Source: Vicinamibacterales bacterium
GTDB taxonomy: Bacteria > Acidobacteriota > Vicinamibacteria > Vicinamibacterales > UBA8438
DNA: 64,000 nucleotides
Assembly (NCBI GenBank): GCA_965207665.1
Contig: CBDBMV010000002.1
Span: 89,704-153,703 of the forward strand
Direction of reading: 5' to 3'
The position numbers and the translations under genes were made by a program. Below the pieces are notes generated by a model. That model saw nothing but the letters and a program-made list of their open reading frames with translations, had not been told where the DNA came from and did not search any database. Within the stretch, counting starts at the first letter, position 1; each line of letters begins with the position of its first letter. Below, one piece after another: positions 2,219 to 24,257 of the stretch.

Positions 2219-2243
2219 ATCTCCGCGCTGCCGGCGCCAACCT

Positions 2244-6172: not shown

Positions 6173-6790
6173 ATGTCGAGAACGTTGAAGATCGGCGGCT
6201 CGCTAGTTGTCGGTATCGTCGTGCTGGCGCTCATCACGTTGCGCCTGGTCGGTTTCGCGCCGCAATACCTGGATCCCCGCAGCGAGGAGTTCGAGCGCGC
6301 AAACCGCATCGCCCGGCCCGGCCTGTGGCTCACGGGAGAGGTGGTCCGCGAGGTGGTAACGGACTGGGACTTCGTCAACCACCTCGACGATCCCGAGCGC
6401 CGCGACACCGTCATGCTCGAGACCCGCACTTGGTACGGCATCCCCCACTCGGTCACCATCGGCATCGTCGGCCGCGGCGACAAGCTCTACATCCACGCCA
6501 ATTCCAGCGGGTGGCGCATGCAGAGGCCCTTCCCGCACGACAAGTACTGGACCCAGAACGTGTCCCGCGACCCGCGGGTGCGCCTGAAGATAGAGGACAA
6601 GATCTACGAGGCGACCGTGGCGCTGATGACGGACCGCGACGAGGTCGCGGCCGTGCTGGGCAGGGACCCCGTAACGGTCGAAAGCGGGCCCGACGGACAG
6701 GAGCGCGTCACGGCCGTCATGCACTACTGGCGCGTGTTCCAGCGGAACGTGCCCGACTACTCTGCGGACTCGCAGGGGGTGGCGTTCTGA
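6173..6790 (+). CDS. Hypothetical membrane-anchored protein
   Basis: Internal ATG gives MSRTLKIGGSLVVGIVVLALITL (one TM helix). No family recognised. Confidence 0.5.
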   Translation: MSRTLKIGGSLVVGIVVLALITLRLVGFAPQYLDPRSEEFERANRIARPGLWLTGEVVREVVTDWDFVNHLDDPERRDTVMLETRTWYGIPHSVTIGIVGRGDKLYIHANSSGWRMQRPFPHDKYWTQNVSRDPRVRLKIEDKIYEATVALMTDRDEVAAVLGRDPVTVESGPDGQERVTAVMHYWRVFQRNVPDYSADSQGVAF

Positions 6791-6826
6791 AGGTGCCGTT
6801 GGGTGACGCGCCGGATGTAGTACCGG

Positions 6827-7738
6827 TCAAACTCCCTGAAACCAATCGGACCGGATCCGCACCCTCTCGATCATCTCAGTCTCAACGCCAAGTTCGTTTT
6901 CCTTGAGCAGGTCGCAAAGGCGATCCCCGTCTATCAGGTCGATCGCGATCGCGCCATCCCGGGTGGCCTCATCAGAGGCCTGACTGGTGAAATTACCCGT
7001 TGTGATGAACAGGCCTTTGTCAGCACGCCCCTGCAACGCGCCGCGAAAATCCCTAATCTCCTTGGCGCCGACGCTCCCCTTCCAACGCTTGCACTGGAAA
7101 TAGATCTGAAAAGAAACCAAGTTCACGCGCAGCACGCCCACACCGTCGATACCACCGTCACCGGACTTCCCACGCACTTCGACTTTGGTGAATCCCGCTT
7201 CGCGCAAGAGACGTTGTGACAGCCGCTCAAATGCATCGGGCGGCATCGCAACCAGCACTGCCACGAGCGACGACTTCCAGTCTTCAGCCTCCTCTGAGTC
7301 GCCATTCGTCGATCCAACAATAGCCGCATCAGCCGCCTTGGCTGCCTGACGCTTGGCACGTGCTCGTTCGCGCTCTTCTTTCGCAACCTGCGCATAGATC
7401 GCACCTGTTTCGTCGAGCTCCGTGATCGCTGCTCCGCTATCGGTCAGCGCCCAGACCCCACGCGAAGAGTTCACGAGTGCCTTGCCGCGTCTGAGGTATG
7501 TGCGCGCCCAGGCGAGGTAGTAACTCACCCGCGTCTGGTTTTCGTTTCGTGGCATCGTGAAGGTCTGCTCGGCTTCGGTCACGCCCTCTAAATCGACCAC
7601 CTTCTCGTCAAGCTCTTGAATAGTGGCCGATCCGCCCAAGTCCTTGAGTGCTTCGATCGTAACTAGCATCATCCCGGGCAAATCCGGCAGGCTTTCCGCG
7701 TCGATCTCAAAACGTCTCTTTACCATTGCACTGTCCAA
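6827..7738 (-). CDS. mrr: Mrr-type restriction endonuclease
   Basis: N-terminal winged-helix-like region plus a C-terminal Mrr catalytic core: GDGGIDGVG ... YFQCKRW ... GLFITTG. G+C is visibly lower than the flanks. Confidence 0.85.
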   Translation of the reverse strand: MDSAMVKRRFEIDAESLPDLPGMMLVTIEALKDLGGSATIQELDEKVVDLEGVTEAEQTFTMPRNENQTRVSYYLAWARTYLRRGKALVNSSRGVWALTDSGAAITELDETGAIYAQVAKEERERARAKRQAAKAADAAIVGSTNGDSEEAEDWKSSLVAVLVAMPPDAFERLSQRLLREAGFTKVEVRGKSGDGGIDGVGVLRVNLVSFQIYFQCKRWKGSVGAKEIRDFRGALQGRADKGLFITTGNFTSQASDEATRDGAIAIDLIDGDRLCDLLKENELGVETEMIERVRIRSDWFQGV

Positions 7739-7999
7739 ATCGTTGGAATCACATGCCTACGAACTTGTCACCATCGCATGTGGTCCCTACTATAACCGGA
7801 CCTGTCGACCCTCGTGAACCGTGCTGGGTTTCCGGGAGGCTCCGCTTCTTCGATGCATGGAGTTCGAGGAAAGACCGAGTCGGTACACGCCGATGGAACG
7901 CGACAGGGCGGCTCGAATGGTACTGGAGTTGAGACGGACCGCTATCCGGTAGTGTGCCGCACCACCCCGGAGCCCCCCTGAAATCGAAGAAAATAGCGC

Positions 8000-8575
8000 A
8001 TGGCCACGTCAAGCCTTGGCAGACTAGCAGTGGTGCTTCGTACGGGCGACGAACAGTTCCAAGGCATCGCTGACTCGCTGCGGTTGCTCGACTACTGGCG
8101 CTGGTCCGGCTCCAGTCTCATGGACAACACGGCTCGAGGGTTGCTTGCCGAGTTCCTAGTTGCGGCGGCCGTTGGCCTGCACAAAACACCCCGGACTGAA
8201 TGGGATAGCTACGACGTGCGTGCGCCGAACGGCACCACGATCGAGGTCAAGAGCGCCGCCTCCATTCAGTCGTGGGAACAGGCCGCTCCGACCCCGATCC
8301 AGTTCGGGATCGCTCCTCGTTACGGCTGGGATCCAGAGACAGGGCAGTACGGCGAGCAGCCTCGGCGCTGGGCTGATCTCTACGTCTTCTGCGTCCTCAA
8401 GGGTACGGAGCCGCTCGACATCGACAAGTGGCAGTTCTACGTGGTTCAAACGACGGTGCTCAACGAAGTGTGCGGAGACCAGAGAACTATCCGCCTGGCG
8501 CCACTCCGTCGGCTTCCACACCGGCAATGTGGTTACCGGGACTTGAAGGACGTTATCGAGAACATGGACGGGTAG
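8000..8575 (+). CDS. PD-(D/E)xK nuclease-like hypothetical protein
   Basis: 191-aa ORF with LLAEFLV ... SYDVRAPNGTTIEVKSA (D ... ExK arrangement). Divergent from mrr. Confidence 0.55.
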   Translation: MATSSLGRLAVVLRTGDEQFQGIADSLRLLDYWRWSGSSLMDNTARGLLAEFLVAAAVGLHKTPRTEWDSYDVRAPNGTTIEVKSAASIQSWEQAAPTPIQFGIAPRYGWDPETGQYGEQPRRWADLYVFCVLKGTEPLDIDKWQFYVVQTTVLNEVCGDQRTIRLAPLRRLPHRQCGYRDLKDVIENMDG

Positions 8576-8721
8576 ACAGCATCGTTGCGCGCACATCGGC
8601 GCGTACTCCGTTGCAACGATGTTGTGGCGGCGAACGTCGGATTCGAACCCGTCGCGATGTCAACTGACGGAGACTTCGCCAGATGCGAAGCGGTCAACCA
8701 ACGACCACCGGCCTCTTGTAA

Positions 8722-9042
8722 TCGGACACCGGTGGCGACGGACCGGTAGTCGTGCTACTTCACGGCGTGCTGATGAATGGCAGCCTGTGGAACGGCATCG
8801 TGGAGGGCTTGCGCGATCGCTATCGCTGCATCGTCCCGGAGCTGCCGTTCGGCGCACACAGCACGCCGATGCCGAAGGATGCCGACCTCAGCCTCGGATC
8901 GATAACCACCATGATTGCCGAGTTCCTCGTGGAGCTCGACCTGCACGACGTCACTCTGGTCTGCAACGATTGGGGCAGCGCACAGCTCGTCGTCAGCCCC
9001 GGAGGTTCGGATCGGGTCGCGAACCTCGTGCTCGTCTCCTGC
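8722..9042 (+). pseudogene. Alpha/beta-hydrolase gene fragment, truncated at both ends
   Basis: Frame reads GGDGPVVVLLHGVLMNGSLW ... VTLVCNDWGSA (nucleophile-elbow position) ... NLVLVSC. An in-frame stop lies at 8719 just upstream. The 3' part is replaced by IS3 and IS110 sequence from about 9043. Confidence 0.6.
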
Positions 9043-9107
9043 ACCAGCCGAACCGCACGCTCCCGTACCTCCGGTGAATACCGACTCGGTCTTCCCATCG
9101 ACTCCAT
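9043..9107 (-). pseudogene. 5' fragment of an IS3-family orfA (about 22 codons)
   Basis: Minus strand reads (MES)MGRPSRYSPEVRERAVRLVQE, typical of the N-terminus of the IS3/IS911 HTH transposase orfA. Similarity is lost beyond that. Confidence 0.45.
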
Positions 9108-9111
9108 CCTC

Positions 9112-10503
9112 TTAAGAAACTCCAGGCTCCACGAGTTGGCCCGTTTCTAGATGGATCAGGCCGAGACCGAGTTGTTGGGCACGGTTACGGAGATTTCGTA
9201 GGGCGCGCGTACGGTGTTGCGCTTCGTAGGCGTCGACACCCGGATCGGCGTACTCGATGTCGCCGCGCAAAACCCGGTAGACAAGTATCGCGAGCTTACG
9301 AGCCGTCGCGGTGATGGCCTTGGCCTTCCCGACACGGTAGGCGAGACGGCGGTAGTACGCCCCGAGGGCGGTGGAGGTTCTCCCGACCGACATGGCGCAC
9401 AAGCGGAGTATGGTGGCGGCACGGTTCGCAGATGGGACGGTCCGCGAGCTAATCACTCGCCCTCCGGTGATCTTGTTCTTGGGCGCGAGGGTCAGCCAGG
9501 ACGTGAAGTGCTTTGCGCTGGGCCACCGCGTCATGTCGGTGCCGATCTCGGCGATGAGTCGTAGGGCCGTATACGGCCCGATGGAGTCGATCCGTGTGAG
9601 ATCCGCGCCGCAGAGGCGGTGGAGGGGGCTGCGAATCTCGAAGCGCGGTTCGTTCTTGGTCCGCTGCCGCTGCCGCGCCGGAGAAAGCGCGTTCTCGGAA
9701 GACGCGTGCTCCGCGGCCAAGTCCCGCAGCAGGGATTCGATCGCCTCATCGCATCGGCCGATCTGATGCTGATAGCTCTCGTAGAGTTCGAGGTTTTGGC
9801 GCAGGGCAAAGACATGCTCTGGCCGATAGTTCCCGGTCAGTGCGGCGGCAATCTCGTCCTCAGACGCACGACAGCGGTAGTTGCGGTGAGCCGCGAGTGC
9901 GCCGGGGTCGGTCACGCCGCGGGCGATGTCGCGTACGATTCGTATCCCCGTCTCTCCGGTGATGTCGGTAATGACATGATGGAGCTGGACGTTCATCTGC
10001 ACCAGGGCTTTCTGAATCCGACGGACGTGCGTGGCGGCATCCTGTATCAGCGTCTCCCGATGCCGGAGGTACGCGCGGAGTGAGACCAGATCCGCTGACG
10101 GTCGGAAACTCCCGCGCAGCAGGCCGACGCTGTGCAGTTCCTGCAGCCACTGGCAGTCGATCACATCCGTCTTCCGTCCCGGGACGTTCTTCACGTGTCG
10201 GGCGTTCACCAGCACTACCTCAAAGCCTTGTGCTTCGAGCATGTCATACAGCGGGATCCAGAACACGCCGGTGGCCTCCATAGCCACCGTGTCGATGCGG
10301 CATGCCTGCAACCACTCGACCAGTTTAGAAAGCTGTGGCGTCAGCGTCCTGAAGCGACGGACCGGCTCTCGGTCCCGATCGGCCGGTACCGCCACGTAGT
10401 GATGCTGAGCCCCGCAGTCGATCCCGGCGGCGTTGGGCTTGATCTCCGGTAGTGCCGCCGCCGGCTTCTTCGTCTTCTGTGCACGAACGCGCCTGTCTGC
10501 CAT
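9112..10503 (-). CDS. IS110-family transposase (DEDD/RuvC-like N-terminal domain plus C-terminal Tnp domain)
   Basis: 463 aa: AGIDCGAQHHYVAV, VAMEATGVFW, VVLVNARHVKN ... KTDVIDCQWL; C-terminal LTRIDSIGPYTALRLIAEIG ... FTSWLTLAPKNKITGG. Confidence 0.9.
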   Translation of the reverse strand: MADRRVRAQKTKKPAAALPEIKPNAAGIDCGAQHHYVAVPADRDREPVRRFRTLTPQLSKLVEWLQACRIDTVAMEATGVFWIPLYDMLEAQGFEVVLVNARHVKNVPGRKTDVIDCQWLQELHSVGLLRGSFRPSADLVSLRAYLRHRETLIQDAATHVRRIQKALVQMNVQLHHVITDITGETGIRIVRDIARGVTDPGALAAHRNYRCRASEDEIAAALTGNYRPEHVFALRQNLELYESYQHQIGRCDEAIESLLRDLAAEHASSENALSPARQRQRTKNEPRFEIRSPLHRLCGADLTRIDSIGPYTALRLIAEIGTDMTRWPSAKHFTSWLTLAPKNKITGGRVISSRTVPSANRAATILRLCAMSVGRTSTALGAYYRRLAYRVGKAKAITATARKLAILVYRVLRGDIEYADPGVDAYEAQHRTRALRNLRNRAQQLGLGLIHLETGQLVEPGVS

Positions 10504-10766
10504 CGGATCCTCCTCCGCTCGGCGATTGGAGAGTCCGGGGGCAGGGTGCGGTTAGGAACAATCTCTTAAGCGGGATCACGCAAGCGTGTCACCAACGAGG
10601 TGGCCGCGACACATCCCTTGGACCACGCTCCCAAACGGGCTCGCCAAGCACCAGTGGAAGGGTCGGCCTCAGTCCCCGGACGCCGCCGCGACTCTACCCC
10701 AGCATGCCGCGAGAGAACCCCGGTTTCTTTGATTTCAGGTGTCGGGCGTCGCGCCCCGTACGGCGG
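10504..10766 (-). ncRNA. Candidate bridge-RNA-encoding 5' non-coding end of IS110 copy 1
   Basis: 263 nt without a credible ORF, upstream of the transposase gene. Contains 8-mers identical to the element-end/core junction (ctcttaag at 10563-10570) and to the target-flank/core junction (gctcccaa at 10627-10634). Confidence 0.35.
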
Positions 10767-10769
10767 CTC

Positions 10770-12161
10770 TTAAGAAACTCCAGGCTCCACGAGTTGGCCC
10801 GTTTCTAGATGGATCAGGCCGAGACCGAGTTGTTGGGCACGGTTACGGAGATTTCGTAGGGCGCGCGTACGGTGTTGCGCTTCGTAGGCGTCGACACCCG
10901 GATCGGCGTACTCGATGTCGCCGCGCAAAACCCGGTAGACAAGTATCGCGAGCTTACGAGCCGTCGCGGTGATGGCCTTGGCCTTCCCGACACGGTAGGC
11001 GAGACGGCGGTAGTACGCCCCGAGGGCGGTGGAGGTTCTCCCGACCGACATGGCGCACAAGCGGAGTATGGTGGCGGCACGGTTCGCAGATGGGACGGTC
11101 CGCGAGCTAATCACTCGCCCTCCGGTGATCTTGTTCTTGGGCGCGAGGGTCAGCCAGGACGTGAAGTGCTTTGCGCTGGGCCACCGCGTCATGTCGGTGC
11201 CGATCTCGGCGATGAGTCGTAGGGCCGTATACGGCCCGATGGAGTCGATCCGTGTGAGATCCGCGCCGCAGAGGCGGTGGAGGGGGCTGCGAATCTCGAA
11301 GCGCGGTTCGTTCTTGGTCCGCTGCCGCTGCCGCGCCGGAGAAAGCGCGTTCTCGGAAGACGCGTGCTCCGCGGCCAAGTCCCGCAGCAGGGATTCGATC
11401 GCCTCATCGCATCGGCCGATCTGATGCTGATAGCTCTCGTAGAGTTCGAGGTTTTGGCGCAGGGCAAAGACATGCTCTGGCCGATAGTTCCCGGTCAGTG
11501 CGGCGGCAATCTCGTCCTCAGACGCACGACAGCGGTAGTTGCGGTGAGCCGCGAGTGCGCCGGGGTCGGTCACGCCGCGGGCGATGTCGCGTACGATTCG
11601 TATCCCCGTCTCTCCGGTGATGTCGGTAATGACATGATGGAGCTGGACGTTCATCTGCACCAGGGCTTTCTGAATCCGACGGACGTGCGTGGCGGCATCC
11701 TGTATCAGCGTCTCCCGATGCCGGAGGTACGCGCGGAGTGAGACCAGATCCGCTGACGGTCGGAAACTCCCGCGCAGCAGGCCGACGCTGTGCAGTTCCT
11801 GCAGCCACTGGCAGTCGATCACATCCGTCTTCCGTCCCGGGACGTTCTTCACGTGTCGGGCGTTCACCAGCACTACCTCAAAGCCTTGTGCTTCGAGCAT
11901 GTCATACAGCGGGATCCAGAACACGCCGGTGGCCTCCATAGCCACCGTGTCGATGCGGCATGCCTGCAACCACTCGACCAGTTTAGAAAGCTGTGGCGTC
12001 AGCGTCCTGAAGCGACGGACCGGCTCTCGGTCCCGATCGGCCGGTACCGCCACGTAGTGATGCTGAGCCCCGCAGTCGATCCCGGCGGCGTTGGGCTTGA
12101 TCTCCGGTAGTGCCGCCGCCGGCTTCTTCGTCTTCTGTGCACGAACGCGCCTGTCTGCCAT
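10770..12161 (-). CDS. IS110-family transposase (identical second copy)
   Basis: 463-aa product identical to 9112..10503. Confidence 0.9.
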   Translation of the reverse strand: MADRRVRAQKTKKPAAALPEIKPNAAGIDCGAQHHYVAVPADRDREPVRRFRTLTPQLSKLVEWLQACRIDTVAMEATGVFWIPLYDMLEAQGFEVVLVNARHVKNVPGRKTDVIDCQWLQELHSVGLLRGSFRPSADLVSLRAYLRHRETLIQDAATHVRRIQKALVQMNVQLHHVITDITGETGIRIVRDIARGVTDPGALAAHRNYRCRASEDEIAAALTGNYRPEHVFALRQNLELYESYQHQIGRCDEAIESLLRDLAAEHASSENALSPARQRQRTKNEPRFEIRSPLHRLCGADLTRIDSIGPYTALRLIAEIGTDMTRWPSAKHFTSWLTLAPKNKITGGRVISSRTVPSANRAATILRLCAMSVGRTSTALGAYYRRLAYRVGKAKAITATARKLAILVYRVLRGDIEYADPGVDAYEAQHRTRALRNLRNRAQQLGLGLIHLETGQLVEPGVS

Positions 12162-12424
12162 CGGATCCTCCTCCGCTCGGCGATTGGAGAGTCCGGGGGC
12201 AGGGTGCGGTTAGGAACAATCTCTTAAGCGGGATCACGCAAGCGTGTCACCAACGAGGTGGCCGCGACACATCCCTTGGACCACGCTCCCAAACGGGCTC
12301 GCCAAGCACCAGTGGAAGGGTCGGCCTCAGTCCCCGGACGCCGCCGCGACTCTACCCCAGCATGCCGCGAGAGAACCCCGGTTTCTTTGATTTCAGGTGT
12401 CGGGCGTCGCGCCCCGTACGGCGG
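12162..12424 (-). ncRNA. Candidate bridge-RNA-encoding 5' non-coding end of IS110 copy 2
   Basis: Identical to 10504..10766. Confidence 0.35.
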
Positions 12425-12427
12425 CTC

Positions 12428-12469
12428 CCAAGAAATGGAGTCTCCAGGAAACCCGGTACGGTTCATACA
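12428..12469 (-). mobile_element. IS3-family left-end remnant (terminal repeat region), separated from its orfA start by the IS110 pair
   Basis: Minus strand reads TG(TA)TGAACCGTACCGGGTTTCCTGGAGACTCCATTTCTTGG. Joining it to 9108 and downward restores GGGAGGA-N8-ATG of the orfA fragment. Confidence 0.4.
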
Positions 12470-12609
12470 AATGGTTGACGACATCTCTGTCCTCGACAAT
12501 AGTGCTGCTCTTTGTCTGAGCGATGAGAACGAAAGTCAAATTATTCAATAGCCGTGCCTTCATCGCCATCTACAGGAGGCAGGGCGGCGCACTTAGGCCA
12601 ACAATCCTA

Positions 12610-14709
12610 TCATGGCATGAGCGCGACAAAATCTGCGTACGCTGTGCGCAACCTCGCTACGAAATGGTTTCTCTCCTGCGCCTGGACGTGTCGCGTCTGT
12701 ACTGCGGTCTTCTTCTCGTACGGGTGTGATACTGGAACGTGGTTTCGCCGAGTGTTCATGTCCCGGAAGCAGCCACCTATTCTTGGACAATTCCTTGAAA
12801 ACGGTCCGTTCGCGTCCAGCGTCACTCCGAAATCAACAAGGTTTCCATCCTTGCCCACCGTGGTACAAGCTGCGCGGTGACCCGCAGCCGCTAGGTGCCG
12901 CTGTAGCGCCAAGAACACAGTTTGATTAAACGAGTTCTGACATACCAACCAAAACGATCGCCTAGCAGCGAACGTCGCCTCCGCCAGCTTTAGCATGCCG
13001 AGTGCATGGACGTACTCAGCGCCCAACAGCGTGCGCCATGATTTACCCCGTGGCACGCTGTATCGAGCGTTGAGAATCTCCGCAACGGCATCAACTTTCG
13101 GGACCGGCGACGCGGTGACGCCCAGCTCACCTAGCGTGTTCGCTACCTGCGATGGCAGCGCCGCCGTCGTTAGGCCAAACGTCGACGGGGATAACCCTCG
13201 CTCTTGCAGTGCCGCACAAACTGAAAGGCCGGGTTCAGGACTGCTGCGCCTGAGAAATATATCTACCAGCTCGTCTTTGCGATAGCTTCCATCCGGAAGA
13301 ACGGGAGCTAACACCGATTGCAGCAGCGGCACCTGGTACTTCAGCCACCGACTGAGACGACGCGACGTCACCTCCTCAGAGACGCACAGGAAGTGACACG
13401 CCCCCCATTTCTCCACGAAGTTCTCAAAGGATTTCTTTCTTGCAATACTCACGGCACGGTCGATGAAGTTGCGGAGTTCAGCCACGGTCTTCGAGGTTGG
13501 GGTCCGTACGTACCGGGCAAGCACGTGCCACGCCTCGCCACGAATGTACGGGTAGGGACTGCTTTGAACTAGATCGTGACAGAGTCGTTCGATCGGCCTG
13601 CGAAAGCCAAATCGTCCGATATAGGCAAAGAACGCATCAGCATGCTCAGGATGTCGTGTGATCAGGCGTAGGACGAATTTGAGTAGGTCCGTATCCGGAT
13701 CTGCACGGTAGAGTACAAACCGAAGCCTTGTCTTGTCAGTAACACGGTTAGGTCTCCCTGCAATCGCAGAGCGAAAAGTGCTGCGAGCATACTGCCTGTC
13801 GAGCCTTTCGCTCCCTGAGCCTTCATGTTGCGGATCTGAAATGCTCGGCAACATCCCCATCGCGTCTTCCACGCTCTGTGCACGCTTTATGGAAAACTTT
13901 CCGGTCTGGGGAATAAGGCCTCGCTCCCTACAATGGCGCTCCAGTTCAATGAGACTTGCACGAACCTCGTCCTCAGTCGCACCGAAAAGCCTAACGTCGT
14001 CAACATATCGCGTATAGCCCCGACGCTTCTGTAGGGCGCGGTCGATGGGAAAGAGGAAGCATTCGGCAAGGAAATCAGATGCTAGCGGACCTTGCGGCAA
14101 TCCATGACCGTGTCCAGACGACGCTCGGTCGGAACTCCAGACCTTTAGGCACTCTCCGAGCCATTCCAGGTCGGCACTCGACGTTCGGGGATAAATCGTC
14201 CTCAGTAGAAGCTCGTGAGAAATTGTCTCGTAAAATGCCGCCAGGTCGAAGTCGCCAACCCACCGGATACCGTCGGCGTAGTGCCTCTTAATCTGGCGCT
14301 GGAATGCCCTGTATGTGAACTGCCATTGGCGAAAGAAAAAGATGCTCTCGGGTTTCTCGAGTATGTTGCTGAACACGACCTTGAACTGGAGCGGTCGGCG
14401 TTTCTGCTGCATTCGCTTGGCCGCGAGATTGGCGAATGCCTGAAGGACGATCTGATCTTCGACTCGAAGTAGAGCAAGCGGTCGATGGAGGCCTGAGGCC
14501 TTTGGAACGTAAATGCGTTCTGGACGTTGCGGTTCAAAGGCCCGACCGATTAGGCGTTGCCGGAGGTCTGCTAGGTTCGCACTAAGCGCGACCTCGTATG
14601 CGTAGTATATGTCTCGATAGAAGCGCTTATACTGGTAATTGCTACCCGTTGTGATTCGTCGCCAAGCCAGCTCTAAATTGTTCTTGCTTGCGAGCTGGTT
14701 TATCCTCAT
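12610..14709 (-). CDS. Stand-alone reverse transcriptase with ~370-aa helical C-terminal extension (Abi/UG defence-associated RT-like)
   Basis: 699 aa with RT motifs YVPKASGLHRPLALLRVEDQIVLQA, DFDLAAFYETISH, GLPQGPLASDFLAECF and YTRYVDDVRLFG. No endonuclease or maturase motifs seen. Low-G+C context. Confidence 0.85.
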   Translation of the reverse strand: MRINQLASKNNLELAWRRITTGSNYQYKRFYRDIYYAYEVALSANLADLRQRLIGRAFEPQRPERIYVPKASGLHRPLALLRVEDQIVLQAFANLAAKRMQQKRRPLQFKVVFSNILEKPESIFFFRQWQFTYRAFQRQIKRHYADGIRWVGDFDLAAFYETISHELLLRTIYPRTSSADLEWLGECLKVWSSDRASSGHGHGLPQGPLASDFLAECFLFPIDRALQKRRGYTRYVDDVRLFGATEDEVRASLIELERHCRERGLIPQTGKFSIKRAQSVEDAMGMLPSISDPQHEGSGSERLDRQYARSTFRSAIAGRPNRVTDKTRLRFVLYRADPDTDLLKFVLRLITRHPEHADAFFAYIGRFGFRRPIERLCHDLVQSSPYPYIRGEAWHVLARYVRTPTSKTVAELRNFIDRAVSIARKKSFENFVEKWGACHFLCVSEEVTSRRLSRWLKYQVPLLQSVLAPVLPDGSYRKDELVDIFLRRSSPEPGLSVCAALQERGLSPSTFGLTTAALPSQVANTLGELGVTASPVPKVDAVAEILNARYSVPRGKSWRTLLGAEYVHALGMLKLAEATFAARRSFWLVCQNSFNQTVFLALQRHLAAAGHRAACTTVGKDGNLVDFGVTLDANGPFSRNCPRIGGCFRDMNTRRNHVPVSHPYEKKTAVQTRHVQAQERNHFVARLRTAYADFVALMP

Positions 14710-15143
14710 CGAATTTGCCGATTAACGTCCGTTGCGCAGAGCGTCGTCACACAAGGTGGTCCGGGTGCGGTTGAGGAACTCGCGTATGCCTACGCCGGCT
14801 TAGTTCATCGGGTGCAAGAGAAAGACTACATCACGGCACCACTACTGCAGCTCAGATATTCGCTACGAATACCCCGACTACCGTCACCTCCCCGACAGTC
14901 ATGTTCTCAACCTCGCCACCAACCTATTGCAGGCACCGAAACATCAACGGCCAACTGCGTAGGAACTCAAACCGAGGCTACACTGATCCGAAAAGTGCGG
15001 GATGTTCTGGATACAACCGGTGTCTAGCTATGTATATAAGCTCTCGAAAGAATATCACCGGCCAGATTCTTGCGACCGCCTCATGACCCCGTGCGATCGC
15101 GGTAGTGTTCCGACGACTCCTCGGGTCGAGATTATCTGCGCGG

Positions 15144-15575
15144 TCAACTCCTAGATGCAGCACTCGCTACGAGGAGAACCGAACCAGTGACTAGTAACGG
15201 AAGCCCCCACGAAAGCTGTACAGACTGCATCGCTATTTCGCCCAACGCTGCGAACGGATTGCCAGCGAGCTCGACTTCCATCTCAGTCCGAACGCTACTC
15301 AGCATCATCTGGAACTGAATAAACGTAAATCCAATAACAGCCAAGGAACCGAACCCGGCAATCCAGTTCCACGCATACCGTCCCATTAGCGTCGCGACAA
15401 TTGCGGACACGCCGAGGATCAAGACGATTGTGCCATCACCTTGGCCGTTTTGGAAGTACGACTGACTACCCACGAACGGCAACGTCACGATGGGTGCGAA
15501 CACGCCAACGGCACAAACGATTCCTCCCACTAGCCCCAACCAGTAACGTCTTGGCACGCCCATCGCCTCTGCCAT
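15144..15575 (-). CDS. Small integral membrane protein (about 4 TM helices)
   Basis: 143-aa ORF with four hydrophobic stretches. Same strand as the RT, upstream of it. Confidence 0.55.
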   Translation of the reverse strand: MAEAMGVPRRYWLGLVGGIVCAVGVFAPIVTLPFVGSQSYFQNGQGDGTIVLILGVSAIVATLMGRYAWNWIAGFGSLAVIGFTFIQFQMMLSSVRTEMEVELAGNPFAALGEIAMQSVQLSWGLPLLVTGSVLLVASAASRS

Positions 15576-15834
15576 ACCATTTGCCTTTCGCTCTACGCCC
15601 GATACGCCATCAACATGCTATGTACGCCTGTCGGCACGTGCCTCACTAGGACCACTATCGACGGAATGCATGCCCCTCTTCGCGAGCGGCCTCCAGTATC
15701 GAACCATTTTTTATGTCACGATCCAATGAAGGAAAACCTCACTATCCATTGACTGCCCGCACCGAGGAATCGATCCGCAGGACGCGTGCGAAGTGGCCTT
15801 CGTTCTCCCGACCAACACACGACCTAAGTTGAGT

Positions 15835-15925
15835 GGCGGAGAGGGTGGGATTCGAACCCACGTGCCGGTTTCCCGACAAGACGCTTTCGAGGCGCCCCCG
15901 TTACGACCACTTCGGTACCTCTCCG
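15835..15925 (-). tRNA. tRNA-Ser (anticodon CGA)
   Basis: Reverse complement folds as a type II tRNA. Acceptor stem GGAGAGG/CCTCTCC, anticodon loop CTCGAAA, long variable arm, T-arm GTGGGTTCGAATCCCAC, encoded CCA. Confidence 0.9.
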
Positions 15926-15989
15926 CATATTTTGACGGCGGGGGTGCGGTGGTCTCGCTCTCCCCTGCCCTACTGTCCGGCGCCTGGCG

Positions 15990-16493
15990 CTACGTGCCGG
16001 CGGCCTCGGCCGCGCGCGGCTCCGTAGCGCGCCGGCGCCGGAAGAACGCCTGCATCAGCTCGCGGCACTCGGCTTCGAGCACGCCGCCGACCGCGCTCAC
16101 GCGGTGGTTGAGCGCGGGGTTGTCGAGCGCCTGCGCTACCGACGCGACAGCGCCTGAACGCGGCTCCGGGGCGCCGTACACCAGCGTCGCGATCCGCGCG
16201 TGCACCAGCGCGCCGGCGCACATGAGGCACGGCTCGACGGTGACGTACAGCGCCGCGCCGGTGAGCCGGTAGTTGCCGAGTGCGCGTGCGGCCGACCGCA
16301 GTGCGACCATTTCGGCGTGCGCGGTCGGGTCGCTGGCACTGATCGGCTGATTGAAGCCGGCGCCGACCAACCGGCCCTCGTGCACGACCACGGCGCCGAC
16401 CGGCACCTCATCCAATTCGAGGGCTTGCAGCGCCTGGTCGAGCGCGGCGCGCATCCAGCGCTCGTGCTCGCTCGCGGCTTCGCCGGCAGCCAC
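15990..16493 (-). CDS. tadA: tRNA adenosine(34) deaminase
   Basis: HAEMVALR and PCLMCAGAL zinc-deaminase motifs; 167 aa. Confidence 0.9.
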
Positions 16494-16509
16494 GTTCCAG
16501 CCTCTAATC

Positions 16510-19579: not shown

Positions 19580-21565
19580 ATGCTCAGACCGGGTTCCCAA
19601 CTAAGCCGTCTTCCAGGCGCGCCAGTCACCATGATCGCCGTCCCGCTCTTGACCGTCTTCCTCAGCTTCAGCGGCACCGCGCCCGCCGCTGCGCAGCCGT
19701 CAGGCCACGACGGCGAATGGCGCAGCTACGGCGGCGGGACCGGCGGGGCGAAGTACTCCCCGCTCGACCAGATCGACGCGGACAACGTGGACGACCTGCG
19801 CATCGCCTGGCGCTGGCGCTCGGTCGACTACGACCTGGTCGACGAGAACCCGGACCTGCGTTTCAACCACACCCTGCTCGGCACGCCGCTGTTGGTCGGC
19901 GACCGGTTGTACATGAGCACCAACCTGGGCCAGTCGGCGGCCATCGATCCGGCCACCGGCGAGACGCTCTGGGTGTACCGCGCGCTGGACGACGGCGCCG
20001 GCCGGCCGCGCGGCGGCTCCACCCGCGGCGTCGCGTATTGGCACGACCCGGGCCTGGACGACGAGCGGATCTTCGTCGTCAGCGGCGAGCACCTCGTGGC
20101 GCTCGACGCGAAGACCGGCAACCCGATCGGCGAGTTCGGCGAAGGCGGCAAGGCCGACCTGCGGGCGGGCATCCCGCGGCTGGAGGAGTACCAGTGGAAC
20201 GCCCCGCCGCTGGTCTGCCGCGACACCGTCATCGTCGGCATCTACGTCAACGACGTGCCGATGAACAAGGAGCAGGCGCCCGGCTACATCCAGGGCTTCG
20301 ATGCGGTGACCGGCCGGCTGAAGTGGCAGTTCAACCCGGTGCCGCAGCCGGGCGAGCCGGGCAACGAGACGTGGGAGGACGGCTCTTGGGAGTACACCGG
20401 ATCGGCGACGGTCTGGTCGGTGATGACCGCCGACGAGGAGCTGGGCTACGCCTATCTCCCCACCGGCACGCCGACCCACAACTGGTACGGCGGCCACCGG
20501 CCCGGCGACAACCTGTTCGCCGAGAGCCTGCTCTGCCTCGACTGCGACACGGGGCGGCTGGTCTGGTACTTCCAGATGATCCACCACGGCGTGTGGGACT
20601 ACGACATCGCCTCGCCGCCGATCCTGGCCGACATCACCGTCGACGGCCGGCCGATCAAGGCAGTGGCGCAGGTGAGCAAGCAGGCGTTCACCTACGTCTT
20701 CGACCGCGTCACCGGCGAGCCGGTCTGGCCGATCGAGGAGCGCCCCGTGCCGCCGTCGGACGTGCCGGGCGAGCAGCTCTCGCCGACGCAGCCCTTCCCG
20801 ACGAAGCCCGCGCCGTTCGACCGGCAGGGCATCACCGAGGACGACCTGATCGACTTCACCCCGGAGCTGCGCGCCGAGGCGCTGGAGATCTTCAGGCAGT
20901 ACCGCTCCGGGCCGATGTTCACGCCCCCGTCCGTGCGCGACGAGTCGCCGGGCGGCACGCTGGGCACGCTGCAGCTTCCGAGCTACGTGGGTGGCTCGAA
21001 TTGGAACGGCGCGGCGTACGACCCCGACACGCAGATGCTCTACGTGCCGTCCATCACCGCTCCAATCCTGGTGTGGCTGCGGCAGCCCGACCCCACGGTG
21101 TCGAACTTCCGCTACATCCGCGGCAACCGCAACGTGTACATCGACGGCCCGCGCGGCCTGCCGCTGGTCAAGCCGCCGTGGGGCCGCATCACCGCCATCG
21201 ACCTCAACACCGGCGAGCACGTCTGGATGACGCCGAACGGCCCCGGACCGCGGGACCACATCGCGCTGCAGGACCTGGCGCTGCCGTGGCTGGGGGCGCC
21301 CGGTCGCGCGGCGCCGCTGCTGACGAAGACGCTGCTGTTCCTGGGAGACGGATCGCCGTCGCTGGTAGTCATTCCGCCGCACGGCGGGGGCAAGATGTTC
21401 CGCGCCTACGACAAGGCGACCGGCGACGTGCTGTGGCAGACCGAGCTGCCGGCCGGCACGTCAGGCGCACCCATGACGTACCTGCACGAGGGGAAGCAGT
21501 ACATCGCGGTGGCCATCAGCGACAACGAGCACGAGGGCGAGGTGATCACCCTCGCGCTGCCTTGA
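19580..21565 (+). CDS. PQQ-dependent dehydrogenase (beta-propeller quinoprotein)
   Basis: WRSYGGGTGGAKYSPLDQIDADNVDDLRIAWRW and propeller repeats. The true start may be the ATG at 19631 (MIAVPLL), which would leave a more plausible divergent intergenic region. Confidence 0.8.
   Translation: MLRPGSQLSRLPGAPVTMIAVPLLTVFLSFSGTAPAAAQPSGHDGEWRSYGGGTGGAKYSPLDQIDADNVDDLRIAWRWRSVDYDLVDENPDLRFNHTLLGTPLLVGDRLYMSTNLGQSAAIDPATGETLWVYRALDDGAGRPRGGSTRGVAYWHDPGLDDERIFVVSGEHLVALDAKTGNPIGEFGEGGKADLRAGIPRLEEYQWNAPPLVCRDTVIVGIYVNDVPMNKEQAPGYIQGFDAVTGRLKWQFNPVPQPGEPGNETWEDGSWEYTGSATVWSVMTADEELGYAYLPTGTPTHNWYGGHRPGDNLFAESLLCLDCDTGRLVWYFQMIHHGVWDYDIASPPILADITVDGRPIKAVAQVSKQAFTYVFDRVTGEPVWPIEERPVPPSDVPGEQLSPTQPFPTKPAPFDRQGITEDDLIDFTPELRAEALEIFRQYRSGPMFTPPSVRDESPGGTLGTLQLPSYVGGSNWNGAAYDPDTQMLYVPSITAPILVWLRQPDPTVSNFRYIRGNRNVYIDGPRGLPLVKPPWGRITAIDLNTGEHVWMTPNGPGPRDHIALQDLALPWLGAPGRAAPLLTKTLLFLGDGSPSLVVIPPHGGGKMFRAYDKATGDVLWQTELPAGTSGAPMTYLHEGKQYIAVAISDNEHEGEVITLALP
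21504..21561 (+). repeat. 58-bp direct repeat, copy A (3' end of the PQQ dehydrogenase CDS)
   Basis: Matches 23168..23225 with 2 mismatches, counted by eye. Confidence 0.8.
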
Positions 21566-21693
21566 CCCTGGTCCGCACCGCGCGCGCTTCCGACCCGCCG
21601 ATGCCCCGCGGCGGCGAGACGTTTGTGATGAACCCGCAGAAGGTAGAGTGCCGTGTGAGACACGTGGTGCGGGAACCTTGCTGTTGATACACG

Positions 21694-23115
21694 ATGGGAA
21701 TCGATACAAAGCGGATCCGGGTCAACAAGGAGCGCGTGCTGAAGTCTGCTGCCGATATCGGCCGCGGGGTGGCGGAGTCCGTCTCAAGCGGGTCGAAGAA
21801 GGCGCTGGACGCTACGGCAAGCGGATCGAAACGGGCGATGGCATCGGCGGCTAGCGGATCCCGCAAGGCTCTGGATTCCACGACAGCCACATCGCGGAAG
21901 GCGCTGAAGTCTGCTGCCGATATCAGCCGTGAGGTGGCGGAGTCCGTCTCAAGCGGGTCGAAGAAGGCGCTGGATGCTGCGGCGGGCAGCTCGAAACGGG
22001 CGGTGGCATCGGCGGCTAGCGGATCCCGCAAGGCTCTGGATTCCACGACAGCCACATCGCGAAAGGCGATGAAGTCTGCTGCCGATTCCGGCCGCAAGGT
22101 CGCGGGGTCGGTCTCAAGCGGGTCCAAGAAGGCACTGGACGCTACGGCAAGCGGTTCAAAACGAGCGATCGCATCGGCGGCTAGCGGGTCCCGAAAGGCT
22201 CTGGAATCAACGACGGCCGTATCGCGAGAGGCATGGAATTCGGCGTCGGTGTCGGCGGCTCGCCTGATTGGTGTGACCCAGGCCGCCTTAGCGAGCAGGT
22301 TGTCAGTCGACCTAAATTCCATGCTCGCCGGCATCGCTGAAGGTCCGGCGACAATCTACGACAAGGCCATGGACGCGGGGTATCTTGAAACCAGCATCGG
22401 TGGCGCGTATCACCGTCTGTTCGACGGGGGGCACACGATCGCGGGAGCGGCGAAGGCGGTCCAGGGTGCCTCAACCCAGGACAGCCTCATCCATGAGGGC
22501 CTCGGCTTTGTCCAGGGGATGTTCCGGGACATGACGACGGCCAAAGGTCTGCCATTGGCGAATTGGGACAAGGCGACGTATGAACACGCCGCGAGCTTCC
22601 TGGAATCGCAGTTTCAAATCAGTCGCGAGTGGTTCTACAACCTGAACACCTACAACGCAGCTGATTTGGTGGGCGGTACGATCGGCATACTCGCGGTGGT
22701 GTTCTTGTGGAATCGGGCCGACACGGAGAGCTTCAGCAGGATGGTGGGCAGCATGGGCGTGGCGGCCGGTCTCAGCGCGAATCCGCTGCTACTGGTCATC
22801 ACGGTAGTCGCCTTGGCGAGAGCCTTTCAGAGGGCCAGAACGGAGGGCAAATGGGGCGACTTCGTCGATGGATCGATACGCGGATCTGTGGTCGCAGCGC
22901 TCACGATCTTCGCAGTCGCACAGGTCACGACGCTTGGCGGCCCCGTGGGTCTGTCCTTCTTGGTAGGCCTCGTGGTCGGCATCCTCGCCAGCAAGGCCGT
23001 GTCTCACGTCAGCGTTGCCGAGATCAGCCGAGTCCTGGCTGAACGGGCCAAGGCAGCCGCAGTTGAGTTCAGGAGCCTCCGGGGCCTGACAATTCCAGCG
23101 CTACCAGCGCGATAG
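21694..23115 (+). CDS. Hypothetical protein: N-terminal 11-residue repeats plus C-terminal multi-TM region
   Basis: 473-aa ORF. Three 55-aa (165-bp) tandem repeats, each made of five 11-mers (SGSKKALDATA type). The C-terminal third has hydrophobic helices. Confidence 0.7.
   Translation: MGIDTKRIRVNKERVLKSAADIGRGVAESVSSGSKKALDATASGSKRAMASAASGSRKALDSTTATSRKALKSAADISREVAESVSSGSKKALDAAAGSSKRAVASAASGSRKALDSTTATSRKAMKSAADSGRKVAGSVSSGSKKALDATASGSKRAIASAASGSRKALESTTAVSREAWNSASVSAARLIGVTQAALASRLSVDLNSMLAGIAEGPATIYDKAMDAGYLETSIGGAYHRLFDGGHTIAGAAKAVQGASTQDSLIHEGLGFVQGMFRDMTTAKGLPLANWDKATYEHAASFLESQFQISREWFYNLNTYNAADLVGGTIGILAVVFLWNRADTESFSRMVGSMGVAAGLSANPLLLVITVVALARAFQRARTEGKWGDFVDGSIRGSVVAALTIFAVAQVTTLGGPVGLSFLVGLVVGILASKAVSHVSVAEISRVLAERAKAAAVEFRSLRGLTIPALPAR
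21739..22233 (+). repeat. 3 x 165-bp in-frame tandem repeat within the CDS
   Basis: Near-identical nucleotide units starting gaagtctgctgccgat... Confidence 0.85.
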
Positions 23116-23167
23116 CGGTGCTCCTGTCCGGACTCAGCAACGAGCGGCCTCTCCCATTGCAACGCCG

Positions 23168-23225
23168 TCGCGGTGGCGATCAGCGACAACGAGCACGAGG
23201 GCGAGGTGATCGCCCTCGCGCTGCC
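23168..23225 (+). repeat. 58-bp direct repeat, copy B (orphan copy of the PQQ dehydrogenase 3' end)
   Basis: Encodes AVAISDNEHEGEVIALALP followed by a stop, with no upstream PQQ-like reading frame. Confidence 0.8.
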
Positions 23226-23286
23226 GTAACAATGACCGTTCCGCCAAGACCGTTACCTGGCGGGGCCGTGGCCGACGCAGCGCCAG

Positions 23287-23541
23287 TCAGCGGTAGGCGT
23301 CACGGCGGCGAACGACGCGAGCGATTTCAACAACCCTGTCGTCGAAATGGTAGGAGTAGAGAACGCGCCAAGCACCTACGCGGAGGCGCCATCCCTTGCC
23401 AGGGCCCCGCAGGCGCTTGACGTCTCCAGCGCCAGTCTCTGCGTGTCGTTCGATTGCGTCAACGATGCGGGTGCGTGCCTGTCGATCCAGTTGCTTCAGG
23501 TCTTGAAGCGCTCGGGTCGATAGCGAAACCGTCCAACTCAA
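23287..23541 (-). CDS. RelE/ParE-family type II toxin
   Basis: 84 aa: DLKQLDRQARTRIVDAI ... VKRLRG ... WRLRVGAWRVLY ... VVRRRDAY. Confidence 0.8.
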   Translation of the reverse strand: MSWTVSLSTRALQDLKQLDRQARTRIVDAIERHAETGAGDVKRLRGPGKGWRLRVGAWRVLYSYHFDDRVVEIARVVRRRDAYR

Positions 23542-23801
23542 AGGTCAAGTTCCCGCTTGACCTCGTCAAGAGTGTGGGTTCGGCCGGCCGCGAAATCCTC
23601 GCGTCCCTCGTCCAGAAGACGGCGGCCTCGCTCGCTCAGTTCCTCGTCCTCTTCCTGCGCGGCTATCGCAACTCTCACCAGAGGGTCGCCATGCGCGGCC
23701 AGGTATTCAAGAAAACGCTCCGCAGCGTGGATCTCGGCTTCCGGCAGGCGATCCACGAGACGATACAGACGAGTTCTCAAATCAGCTTCCATGACTGCCA
23801 T
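23538..23801 (-). CDS. Putative cognate antitoxin
   Basis: 87-aa acidic protein directly upstream of the toxin, with a 4-nt overlap. Confidence 0.6.
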   Translation of the reverse strand: MAVMEADLRTRLYRLVDRLPEAEIHAAERFLEYLAAHGDPLVRVAIAAQEEDEELSERGRRLLDEGREDFAAGRTHTLDEVKRELDL

Positions 23802-23825
23802 GGTATCTGTCCACTCCTCCGCACT

Positions 23826-24257
23826 TTACGGCTCGGGACTGATCGGGCCTTCCGCCGGGCGCTCGGTCGTGCCCAGCTCGTAGCCCCTGTCCTTCCAGTC
23901 GTTCAGTGCGCAGAATTCGCCGGCGTTGTAACCGTTCGATCTGAAGAGCTCCGCAGCACGGGAGCCCCGGCCTCCGCCGTTTCAAAAGAAGACGAGGCGG
24001 ACGTCCTTGGGAATGTCGGACATCCGGTCCTCGAGCTCCCCTACCGGGATGTGGATGGCGCCGGGAATCGAGCCGCTGGCCACCTCGTGGTCCTCGCGCA
24101 CGTCGATCATCAGCACCTCGGCGCCGGCGTCAAGCTGCTGCTTCAGCTCGTCGATTTCCATGCGCTCGGTCTGCGCCGCCGCGGGCAGCGCCACGGCCAG
24201 CAGGCCTGCCGCGCCCAGCAACGCGAACAGCCGGAATCGTAATGGATGAAGCATCAT
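23826..24257 (-). CDS. Periplasmic single-domain rhodanese with in-frame TGA (codon 92) at the catalytic Cys position; candidate selenoprotein
   Basis: AGGAGG 7 nt upstream of ATGATG, then a signal peptide. IDVREDHEVASGSIPGAIHIP ... KDVRLVFF-TGA-NGGGRGSRAAELFRSNGY ... LNDWKDRGYEL. The same frame continues 51 more codons to the TAA at 23826. Confidence 0.6.
23946..23967 (-). promoter_or_regulatory. Candidate bacterial SECIS hairpin
   Basis: Begins 15 nt after the UGA. Stem GGGCUCC/GGAGCUC (7 bp including one G-U), 8-nt loop CGUGCUGC containing GU. Confidence 0.4.

Follow-up and report, generated by a model that had tools for sequence, protein, structure and literature searches.

A UG19 reverse transcriptase, probably of the 'large' variant, in a tRNA-Ser-linked island: a candidate single-gene anti-phage system

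Which kind of reverse transcriptase (RT) is encoded by a 699-aa open reading frame in a low-G+C island of a Vicinamibacterales bacterium, and what could its role be? Within the window, that is, the whole stretch of 64,000 nt that was analyzed, the gene occupies the following position.

12610..14709, minus strand: complete UG19 RT gene, probably of the 'large' variant (ORF list and translation, PADLOC RT_UG19, dN/dS ~0.1)

According to the ORF list and the translation, the ORF lies exactly where a previous reading made from the letters of the DNA only (hereafter, the sequence-only reading) had placed it. It runs from an ATG to a TGA, encodes 699 aa and is on the minus strand, which that reading did not give. 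Every RT core motif quoted in that reading was found in the translation, namely, PKASGLHRPL (aa 69-78), VEDQIVLQA (aa 83-91), DFDLAAFYETISH (aa 153-165), LPQGPLASDF (aa 204-213) and YVDD (aa 235-238). The catalytic set is complete and consists of D155 (motif A), P205-Q206-G207, S211 and Y235-V-D237-D238. The protein matches Pfam RVT_1 (E 2e-13, aa 102-274) as well as RT_UG19 and has hundreds of full-length homologues, and its dN/dS is ~0.1; thus, the ORF is a real, intact RT gene rather than a chance reading frame. Compared with the closest allele, dN/dS was 0.06 for the RT, 0.15 for the helical and 0.11 for the C-terminal domain, and the gene is under strong purifying selection in all three. 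Among 133 diverse representatives clustered at 50% identity, the RT catalytic residues are 98-100% conserved, and R76, Q90, D155, PQG, S211, R234, D237, G628 and H662 are conserved in 100%.

The best PADLOC match of the protein was RT_UG19 (E 6e-154, 512 bits), with residues 3-696 aligned to positions 3-559 of the 562-position profile, whereas the runner-up models scored far lower (UG21, 174 bits; UG32, 136 bits) and the AbiK model matched with E 4e-10. Because RT_UG19 is the best match end to end and by a wide margin, the window RT belongs to UG19, probably in its 'large' variant, among the Class 1 UG/Abi RTs. This result bears out the assignment to the Abi/UG class of defence RTs proposed in the sequence-only reading and settles the group, which had been left undecided there. 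UG19 was defined as a Class 1 UG/Abi group by Mestre et al. 2022 (PMC9226505), with a fused C-terminal domain of unknown kind that shows very distant HEPN similarity, and with a defence role predicted on the basis of single loci, not of statistical enrichment. No experiments on any UG19 member were found in the searchable literature. The common plan of UG19-large proteins (PADLOC RT_UG19) consists of the RT, a helical domain and an extra fused C-terminal domain of remote HEPN character, encoded by a stand-alone gene that is frequently found in defence or mobile contexts, and nothing in the window RT excludes membership. Its sub-family, with members of 698-700 aa, is tightly conserved (66-84% identity among members) and spans Binatia, Gammaproteobacteria, Cyanobacteria, Acidobacteriota and Aminicenantes. 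The window RT is a typical member of an already defined group, neither a new group nor a new element class, and what this adds for the window by itself is chiefly a correct annotation.

In the RT domain, the nearest sequence similarity is to group II intron RTs/maturases and retron RTs (PDB 5hhl, 7uim and 6ar1; E 1e-26 to 1e-23), but the window RT comes without a maturase/X or endonuclease domain, intron RNA, msr/msd or a conserved neighbouring effector. A group II intron RT was rejected on a TIGR04416 score of 83 bits (cut-off, 300), with no GIIM domain in Pfam and no intron RNA in Rfam at E<=1. A retron was rejected on a retron_St85 score of 22.7 bits (cut-off, 235), with no Rfam match and neither flanking non-coding sequence nor a neighbour conserved in 10 loci. 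As for diversity-generating-type elements (DGR), the only long repeat in positions 6500-16500 is the IS110 duplication, and there is no TR/VR-like pair. The exclusion of all three classes in the sequence-only reading thus holds, with profile scores far under the cut-offs, no RNA family and no TR/VR repeats; intron RNA domains and template/variable repeats were looked for around the gene and not found. The DRT2-5 models also scored the window RT far below their cut-offs, and the Class 2 DRTs (DRT2, DRT9 and DRT10) were rejected given the weak Drt9 and Drt2 HMM matches and the lack of a conserved ncRNA beside the RT gene. Membership in AbiA was rejected as well: the 25 top PADLOC matches include no AbiA model, and the Foldseek alignment with AbiA (PDB 8oz7; ~675 columns) gives ~12% identity and a TM score of ~0.35-0.37, so that the resemblance is one of architecture, not of membership.

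This architecture is apparent in the AlphaFold (AF2) model of the whole protein (pLDDT 88.6, pTM 0.90), in which three predicted domains, RT fingers/palm, helical alpha-repeat-like and compact C-terminal helical, follow one another.

13855..14709, minus strand: RT fingers/palm domain, aa 1-285 (Pfam RVT_1, residue conservation, AF2 model and Foldseek RT matches)
13996-14007, minus strand: YVDD, aa 235-238, within the RT fingers/palm domain
13801..13854, minus strand: flexible linker, aa 286-303, between the RT and the helical domain (pLDDT <50 at aa 294-299)
13096..13800, minus strand: all-helical, alpha-repeat-like domain, aa 304-538 (AF2 model, Foldseek)
12613..13095, minus strand: compact helical C-terminal domain, aa 539-699, HEPN-like (domain model, Foldseek, motif conservation)
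12718-12750, minus strand: motif R654-R655-N656-x5-H662-P-Y664 in the C-terminal domain

The C-terminal extension had been put at ~370 aa and described as helical; it is indeed helical in the model, but comprises ~400 aa divided between two domains (aa ~304-538 and 539-699). The first of these is purely helical and confidently modelled, shows weak HEAT_2 matches in two family members (Pfam scan) and corresponds to the alphaRep domain fused to the RT that is the hallmark of Class 1. Foldseek aligned the RT and helical domain with AbiK (up to 630 columns), AbiA (675), DRT4/UG15, DRT6 and Abi-P2, with E values of 1e-9 to 1e-8 against AbiK, Abi-P2, DRT4 and DRT6. In AbiK, Abi-P2, DRT4 (UG15) and DRT6 (UG12), too, the RT fingers/palm precede an alpha-repeat helical domain that replaces the thumb, a replacement that is putative in the window RT. 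They are single-gene defence systems with protein-primed, untemplated synthesis; in contrast to UG19-large, they are 490-600 aa long and have no extra C-terminal HEPN-like domain. AbiA of Lactococcus resembles the window RT in its three-part plan, with an RT without a thumb, a helical domain and a C-terminal HEPN carrying R-x6-H, and is also a single-gene system, which makes untemplated, protein-primed ssDNA.

All biochemically studied Class 1 enzymes (AbiK, AbiA, Abi-P2 and DRT4) produce ssDNA in this protein-primed, untemplated manner. By analogy, the window RT would copy no RNA template but would prime on a hydroxyl residue of its own and extend untemplated ssDNA, an extrapolation across only ~12-17% identity to the other UG/Abi groups with a known mechanism. 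The priming tyrosines are family-specific in position (AbiK Y44, Abi-P2 Y61, DRT4 Y125) and not simply transferable to the window RT. Among the 133 representatives, the YVDD region aside, no tyrosine is invariant; conservation reaches 93% at both Y27 and Y133, and P288-S289 of the linker is fairly conserved, with S289 present in 82%. In AbiA, the priming tyrosines sit in the equivalent linker between the RT and the helical domain, and a priming role for S289 is a candidate one, next to Y27 and Y133 as the other residues that might serve. Phage infection would then, again by analogy, alter the fate or amount of the ssDNA. As a further step, the C-terminal domain may be a HEPN-type module in which the R655-x6-H662 dyad would act as effector, probably through RNase activity that leads to growth arrest or abortive infection; it would probably serve as a dimerisation interface too. 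Anti-phage defence by the window RT is a prediction, and we assign a probability of roughly 0.55 to the reading that UG19-large is a single-gene candidate anti-phage system that would combine untemplated protein-primed ssDNA synthesis with a HEPN-like effector.

The effector part of this reading depends on the C-terminal domain. Structure prediction, which had been suggested for this region, yielded a model of the isolated domain (160 aa) with a pLDDT of 95.2, and its top Foldseek neighbours in the PDB were HEPN toxins, the sacsin HEPN, ST0689 and Csm6, all of them weak (E~1, prob <=0.51, TM 0.38-0.45). At the sequence level, no HEPN match was obtained in Pfam scans of 30-39 family members or in a PDB profile search, and hhalign against the small RNFLAH-motif ORF of the sister locus L012 was negative. 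The spacing of R655-x6-H662 is identical to that of R581/H588 in AbiA. R655 (98%) and H662 (100%) are conserved in the 133 representatives on par with the polymerase active site, and their conservation holds in relatives down to 25% identity. A stand-alone form of the domain, as a 'UG19-small' partner, was sought and rejected: the profile search gave only short proteins, and the three such matches that were inspected are pseudogene pieces or contig-end fragments.

A rather unlikely alternative keeps the untemplated, protein-primed DNA synthesis but holds that the HEPN-like domain is not a nuclease, only an oligomerisation or DNA-binding scaffold that the polymerase needs, as in AbiA, and that toxicity or defence would come from the accumulation of ssDNA. 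The HEPN domain of AbiA brings about dimerisation and is required for polymerase activity, yet its R/H motif is dispensable, with R581A/H588A mutants still defending, so the conservation of R655 and H662 need not mean nuclease activity. Furthermore, in the case of DRT4, whose ssDNA product is shielded by a DNA-binding protein of the phage, accumulation of this DNA is thought to be toxic, and the HEPN fold assignment is itself weak here. However, in contrast to the dispensable motif of AbiA, R-x6-H is near-invariant in UG19 relatives, as strictly kept as the polymerase catalytic residues, which is unusual for a purely structural dyad, and the whole domain evolves with a dN/dS of ~0.11. Characterization of UG19 would distinguish two roles of a HEPN joined to an untemplated polymerase, effector or scaffold only, a question left open by AbiA; the residues singled out for function are D237/D238, R655/H662 and the priming candidates. 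Within the reading of UG19-large as a polymerase with a HEPN-like effector, a more specific and only tentative possibility is that it represents a mechanistically distinct DRT type, in which untemplated protein-primed DNA would gate an active HEPN RNase in the same polypeptide, a coupling that, if true, would be without precedent in any DRT.

The genomic surroundings of the gene bear on whether it is an immune gene at all.

6799..15832, no strand: low-G+C island between tRNA-Ser and conserved host genes (composition, L012 synteny, gene assignments)
15834..15924, minus strand: tRNA-Ser(CGA) (ARAGORN and Rfam), context, outside the system
6827-7738: Mrr-type type IV restriction enzyme, in the island
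8000-8575: ORF without an HMM match, in the island
8624-8650: tRNA-3'-like fragment, in the island
9109-12427: IS110-family tandem pair, two identical copies, in the island
15144-15575: membrane-protein ORF, 143 aa, in the island

The low G+C content noted from the sequence was confirmed (55.5% in the RT gene versus 68.9% in distant flanks), and the profile of the window runs at 0.55-0.63 over positions ~7000-16000 and at ~0.69-0.72 elsewhere. The island spans ~9 kb, with the 3' end of tRNA-Ser as one boundary: this 29-nt end is identical in L012 and is followed there by a different UG19 allele, and synteny of the host genes with L012 restarts at window position 6798, with 94.8% nucleotide identity. 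At this slot, sister genomes carry divergent RT alleles, with an RT dS of 0.94 versus 0.11-0.20 for host genes. In the preferred reading, the RT gene was acquired horizontally in a tRNA-Ser-linked island. With these defined borders, the locus is a clean, intact single-gene example from a group predicted to be antiviral. Of the neighbours listed in the sequence-only reading, the tRNA, the IS elements and the Mrr nuclease stood, whereas the second supposed nuclease (ORF 8000-8575) has no HMM match. Near relatives of the RT gene, we found BrxL, a CBASS cyclase, a caspase-like protease, AbiEii and a TIR protein, whereas at loci L004/L008, L007 and L009 the RT is surrounded by housekeeping genes and lacks defence neighbours. 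The RT family was not detected in the plasmid and phage collections searched, and IMG/VR yielded only two extended but distant matches. Pseudogenised remnants are present elsewhere, at L094 and L095.

It is improbable that the gene has no immune role and is instead either an RT, domesticated or selfish, with some other function in the cell, or a passenger decaying within the island. The defence role of UG19 is itself a prediction, some homologues reside among metabolic genes, and the remnants and the absence from the plasmid and phage collections searched would fit such a history. Yet the gene is intact and strongly constrained in all domains, sits in a horizontally acquired island alongside a type IV restriction enzyme, and shows allele turnover in the same slot that is typical of defence hot spots; moreover, many relatives have defence neighbours, and the gene is single-copy and shows neither the terminal repeats nor the target-site features that mark a mobile retroelement.

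Comparison of 10 loci from several phyla revealed no conserved neighbour gene, and none of the other RT loci contains any of the candidate partners in the island (the 143-aa membrane ORF, ORF 8000-8575, Mrr and the IS110 transposase). Nucleotide similarity among the loci ends no farther than 21 nt before the ORF and 11-40 nt past it, and alignment and BLAST of the 300-1500 nt flanks of the 10 loci detected no shared sequence beyond the ORF bar one upstream block, common to L001, L007 and L013, which was rejected as an ncRNA, being a remnant of the brxL 3' end. An RNA element embedded in the ORF was rejected as well, with synonymous codon identity of 0.37-0.64 and no strong peak (sliding window, 10 alleles). 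Rfam detected tRNAs only, both at gathering thresholds and at E<=1, and promoter and terminator counts were within ~1 standard deviation of the shuffled-sequence mean. RNA-templated synthesis, as in Class 2 DRTs and retrons, from an unrecognised ncRNA or the mRNA of the gene itself is accordingly disfavoured and highly improbable: although the RT domain is nearest to group II intron-type RTs in sequence and the upstream intergenic region is long (434 nt), even the closest alleles (80% identical inside the ORF) have no conserved flanks, the only conserved upstream stretch elsewhere is the brxL remnant, the ORF shows no local excess of synonymous conservation, Rfam gave only tRNAs, and the studied Class 1 members are all untemplated.

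Because neither a partner gene nor a flanking RNA is conserved in the 10 loci, the unit is the RT gene alone, in line with the stand-alone RT that the initial reading had described. As regards the tentative possibility of a distinct DRT type with a DNA-gated HEPN RNase, the near-absolute conservation of R655 and H662 together with that of the polymerase active site, and the complete lack of partner genes, are compatible with such a self-contained sensor-polymerase-nuclease.

The gene at 12610-14709, described in the sequence-only reading as a 699-aa reverse transcriptase (RT), is an ORF on the minus strand with an ATG start and 699 aa, and all the RT motifs quoted there were located in its translation:

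aa 69-78, PKASGLHRPL
aa 83-91, VEDQIVLQA
aa 153-165, DFDLAAFYETISH
aa 204-213, LPQGPLASDF
aa 235-238, YVDD

Pfam RVT_1 matched aa 102-274 (E 2e-13). The low-G+C setting was likewise borne out: the gene has a G+C content of 55.5% versus 68.9% in the distant flanks, and the window profile dips to 0.55-0.63 over about 7000-16000.

The PADLOC search that the same reading had called for matched the protein end to end to RT_UG19 (PADLOC-DB; E 6e-154, 512 bits; aa 3-696 aligned to positions 3-559 of the 562-position profile), followed by UG21 (174 bits), UG32 (136 bits) and UG23 (110 bits), with AbiK at E 4e-10. NCBIfam scores were far under the cut-offs for group II intron RT/maturase (83 bits versus 300) and retron St85 (23 versus 235), and reached 13-40 bits versus 200-550 for Drt2-5. 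Pfam detected no maturase domain in the protein, RNA families including those of group II introns and retrons gave no match at gathering thresholds or at E<=1, and no TR/VR-type repeat pair was found. None of the refuting conditions named in the sequence-only reading therefore applies: the RT scores as neither a group II intron RT nor a retron RT, and the gene has no recognisable intron RNA or template/variable repeats around it.

UG19 has been assigned to Class 1 of the UG/Abi RTs, and its 'UG19-large' form has an unknown domain fused at the C-terminus that is very distantly similar to HEPN (Mestre et al. 2022, PMC9226505). In that study, the defence role of UG19 is a prediction from individual loci only, and the groups tested were UG12, UG10, UG7 and UG28, not UG19; no later experiments on UG19 were found in the literature searched. 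The protein is a UG19 member, probably of the UG19-large form. The proposal of an Abi/UG-class defence RT was therefore correct as to kind (UG19, Class 1); this kind is already known and catalogued, and the gene is not a new system. It is useful mainly as a clean candidate on which UG19, whose defence role stands as a prediction, could be characterised.

A protein collection clustered at 90% identity contained 577 relatives, the best 120 of which are 66-84% identical and nearly all 698-700 aa long; named relatives come from Binatia, Gammaproteobacteria (Steroidobacteraceae), Synechococcus, Acidobacteriota and Aminicenantes. Representatives clustered at 50% identity, when searched exhaustively, gave 329 proteins at E<=1e-30, many of them full length (~700 aa) and sharing 25-45% identity. 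Plasmid and phage collections contained no relatives, and IMG/VR gave just two extended matches, both distant. Across 133 full-length representatives clustered at 50% identity, R76, Q90, D155, P205-Q206-G207, S211, R234, D237, G628 and H662 are 100% conserved, and K70, D85, H165, D223, Y235, D238, K271 and R655 are 98-99% conserved. Thus, the C-terminal dyad R655...H662, located in the motif RRNxxPxSHPY, is constrained as tightly as the polymerase active site. Compared pairwise with the closest allele, the RT, helical and C-terminal domains have dN/dS values of 0.06, 0.15 and 0.11, respectively; the polymerase site is intact and under selection.

Short proteins matching the C-terminal domain, considered as stand-alone partners, proved to be fragments or pseudogene pieces. 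Decayed UG19 genes occur in L094 and L095. In L094 (3353-5801), the sole remainder is a frameshifted part homologous to aa 322-698, directly 3' of a group II intron-type RT/maturase ORF and with a ThsB-like TIR gene nearby; in L095 (4594-5468), frameshifted pieces span aa 408-697.

An AlphaFold2 model built from a 70-sequence alignment was confident (pLDDT 88.6, pTM 0.90) and agreed with the helical C-terminal extension noted by eye, dividing it in two:

to about aa 285, RT fingers/palm
aa 286-303, disordered linker
aa 304-538, all-helical domain
aa 539-699, compact helical domain

Foldseek searches of the PDB with this model retrieved group II intron RT, AbiK, DRT4/UG15, DRT6, Abi-P2, DRT9 and AbiA (all E 1e-9 to 1e-6, TM 0.33-0.40), with up to 630 aligned columns for AbiK and about 675 for AbiA. 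When the C-terminal domain was modelled by itself (pLDDT 95.2), its best neighbours were HEPN proteins, at non-significant values (E~1, prob <=0.51, TM 0.38-0.45): the MNT-HEPN toxins 8yuf, 7ae9, 7ae2, 7ae6 and 7ae8, as well as sacsin HEPN 3o10, 5yep, ST0689 1wol and Csm6 5fsh. Sequence-profile searches of Pfam and PDB sequences gave no HEPN match. The R-x6-H spacing of R655/H662 equals that of AbiA R581/H588, and the H-x-Y that follows probably resembles the RX4HXY motif of MNT-HEPN toxins. Considering these observations together, a HEPN fold is the likely prediction for this domain.

The suggestion that the gene stands alone held up in a comparison of ten loci with usable flanks (L001, L004, L006-L013), which have no conserved neighbour gene. 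Similarity to the window at the nucleotide level is lost no more than 21 nt before and 11-40 nt after the ORF, closest allele included. Inside the ORF, synonymous-site identity lacks any strong local peak indicative of an embedded RNA element. The 143-aa membrane ORF, ORF 8000-8575, Mrr and IS110 transposase of the window are absent from all other RT loci compared. Thus, the RT gene alone is the functional unit.

An upstream block of 110-260 nt common to L001, L007 and L013 was considered as an ncRNA and rejected, as it is the 3' end of brxL (L001 ORF versus BrxL, E 1.4e-114). These brxL parts lie at 6949-7974 in L001, which keeps a truncated BrxL, and at ~5870-5980 in L007 and ~4745-4990 in L013, where remnants of only 110-260 nt persist. 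They are the trace of a BREX neighbourhood, and the RT in these loci appears to have been carried along with part of a BREX locus.

The protein combines an intact polymerase, a modelled Class 1-type helical domain and a further C-terminal domain whose R/H dyad is invariant, with no partner gene or RNA. By analogy with AbiK, AbiA, Abi-P2 and DRT4, the RT would prime on its own hydroxyl residue and make ssDNA without a template, and phage infection would alter the fate of this ssDNA; by further extrapolation, the HEPN-like domain may act as effector and/or dimerisation module. Priming residues differ by group (AbiK Y44, Abi-P2 Y61, AbiA Y298/Y303 in the linker, DRT4 Y125), so none can be assigned here; Y27 and Y133 (each 93% conserved in the 133 representatives) and linker S289 (82%) are candidates only. 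In how it would work, the UG19 protein appears closest to AbiA, with RT, helical domain and a likely HEPN domain, albeit without membership of the AbiA family; it has the polymerase and helical core in common with AbiK, Abi-P2, DRT4 and DRT6, with a third domain on top.

A serious rival holds that the HEPN-like domain is a scaffold rather than an effector, since AbiA requires its HEPN domain but can do without the motif. Templated synthesis is less likely: Class 2 systems are ncRNA-templated, which a single-gene unit without RNA does not fit, whereas it agrees with Class 1, in which none of the members studied requires an RNA. A non-defence role is also less likely. In relatives, the RT lies among metabolic genes in L004/L008, L007 and L009, and close to defence or mobile genes in several others:

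L012, AbiEii
L013, CBASS-type cyclase and IS3
L011, caspase-like protease, DUF3427 helicase, integrase and HicA
L010, Aga-nuclease-like protein and methylase S subunit
L001, BrxL and integrase fragments
L094, TIR protein

The context described from sequence was also recovered, with a tRNA gene, two IS110-family transposase genes and an Mrr-type enzyme; together with further features noticed here, these are:

6827-7738, Mrr-type enzyme (PADLOC type IV methyl-directed restriction model, E 1.7e-26)
8000-8575, plus strand, ORF of 191 aa located between Mrr and the IS110 copies
8624-8650, 27-nt tRNA-like fragment
9109-10766 and 10767-12424, IS110-family copies, 100% identical
15144-15575, minus strand, 143-aa ORF between tRNA-Ser and RT
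15834-15924, tRNA-Ser(CGA)

Locus L012, from a sister genome, aligns with window 6798-3541 through its host genes (94.8% nt identity) and has the very same 29-nt 3' end of tRNA-Ser, which places the island borders at 6799-15832. The L012 slot (1-3221 versus window 6798-15861) holds a UG19 allele of 80.5% nt identity, with dS of 0.94 for the RT versus 0.11-0.20 for four flanking host genes; the small ORF between tRNA and RT differs, and the IS and Mrr segments are missing from L012. Thus, the tRNA-Ser slot is a hot spot of allele and cargo turnover, typical of defence islands, and the difference between the two genomes indicates allele replacement. The L012 ORF (213-749, plus strand, 178 aa) contains a classical-looking HEPN motif, KTRNFLAHRFF, has no Pfam or PADLOC match and is not similar to the C-terminal domain of the RT.

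The fragment at 8624-8650 resembles a tRNA T-arm and 3' acceptor end (GGGTTCGAATCCGACGTTCGCCGCCAC on the minus strand) and is 85% identical, in direct orientation, to the tRNA-Ser 3' end (15833-15859). It may be an att-site remnant dividing the island into two modules, one containing the RT (8651-15832) and the other Mrr (6799-8623); no integrase gene is left. The 143-aa ORF has about three hydrophobic, probably membrane-spanning segments; having no family match and being absent from other RT loci, it is probably unrelated cargo. ORF 8000-8575, with no Pfam or PADLOC match, could be a PD-(D/E)XK nuclease candidate, judging from a D...E-x-K-like stretch (YDVRAPNGTTIEVKSA). The IS110-family copies form a perfect head-to-tail tandem of a 1658-bp element (9109-12427), ending 183 bp 3' of the RT stop codon, with CTC at the junction and both outer ends; the tandem recreates a circle-junction arrangement, and the identity of the copies implies very recent activity.

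Elsewhere in the window, a 473-aa ORF (21694-23115, plus strand) without a Pfam match has a highly repetitive N-terminal half (repeat type SGSKKALDA...SGSRKALDSTTA). It lies within a second, milder G+C dip (0.62-0.63 at 22001-24000), and a long antisense ORF (21546-22334, minus strand) overlaps its start.
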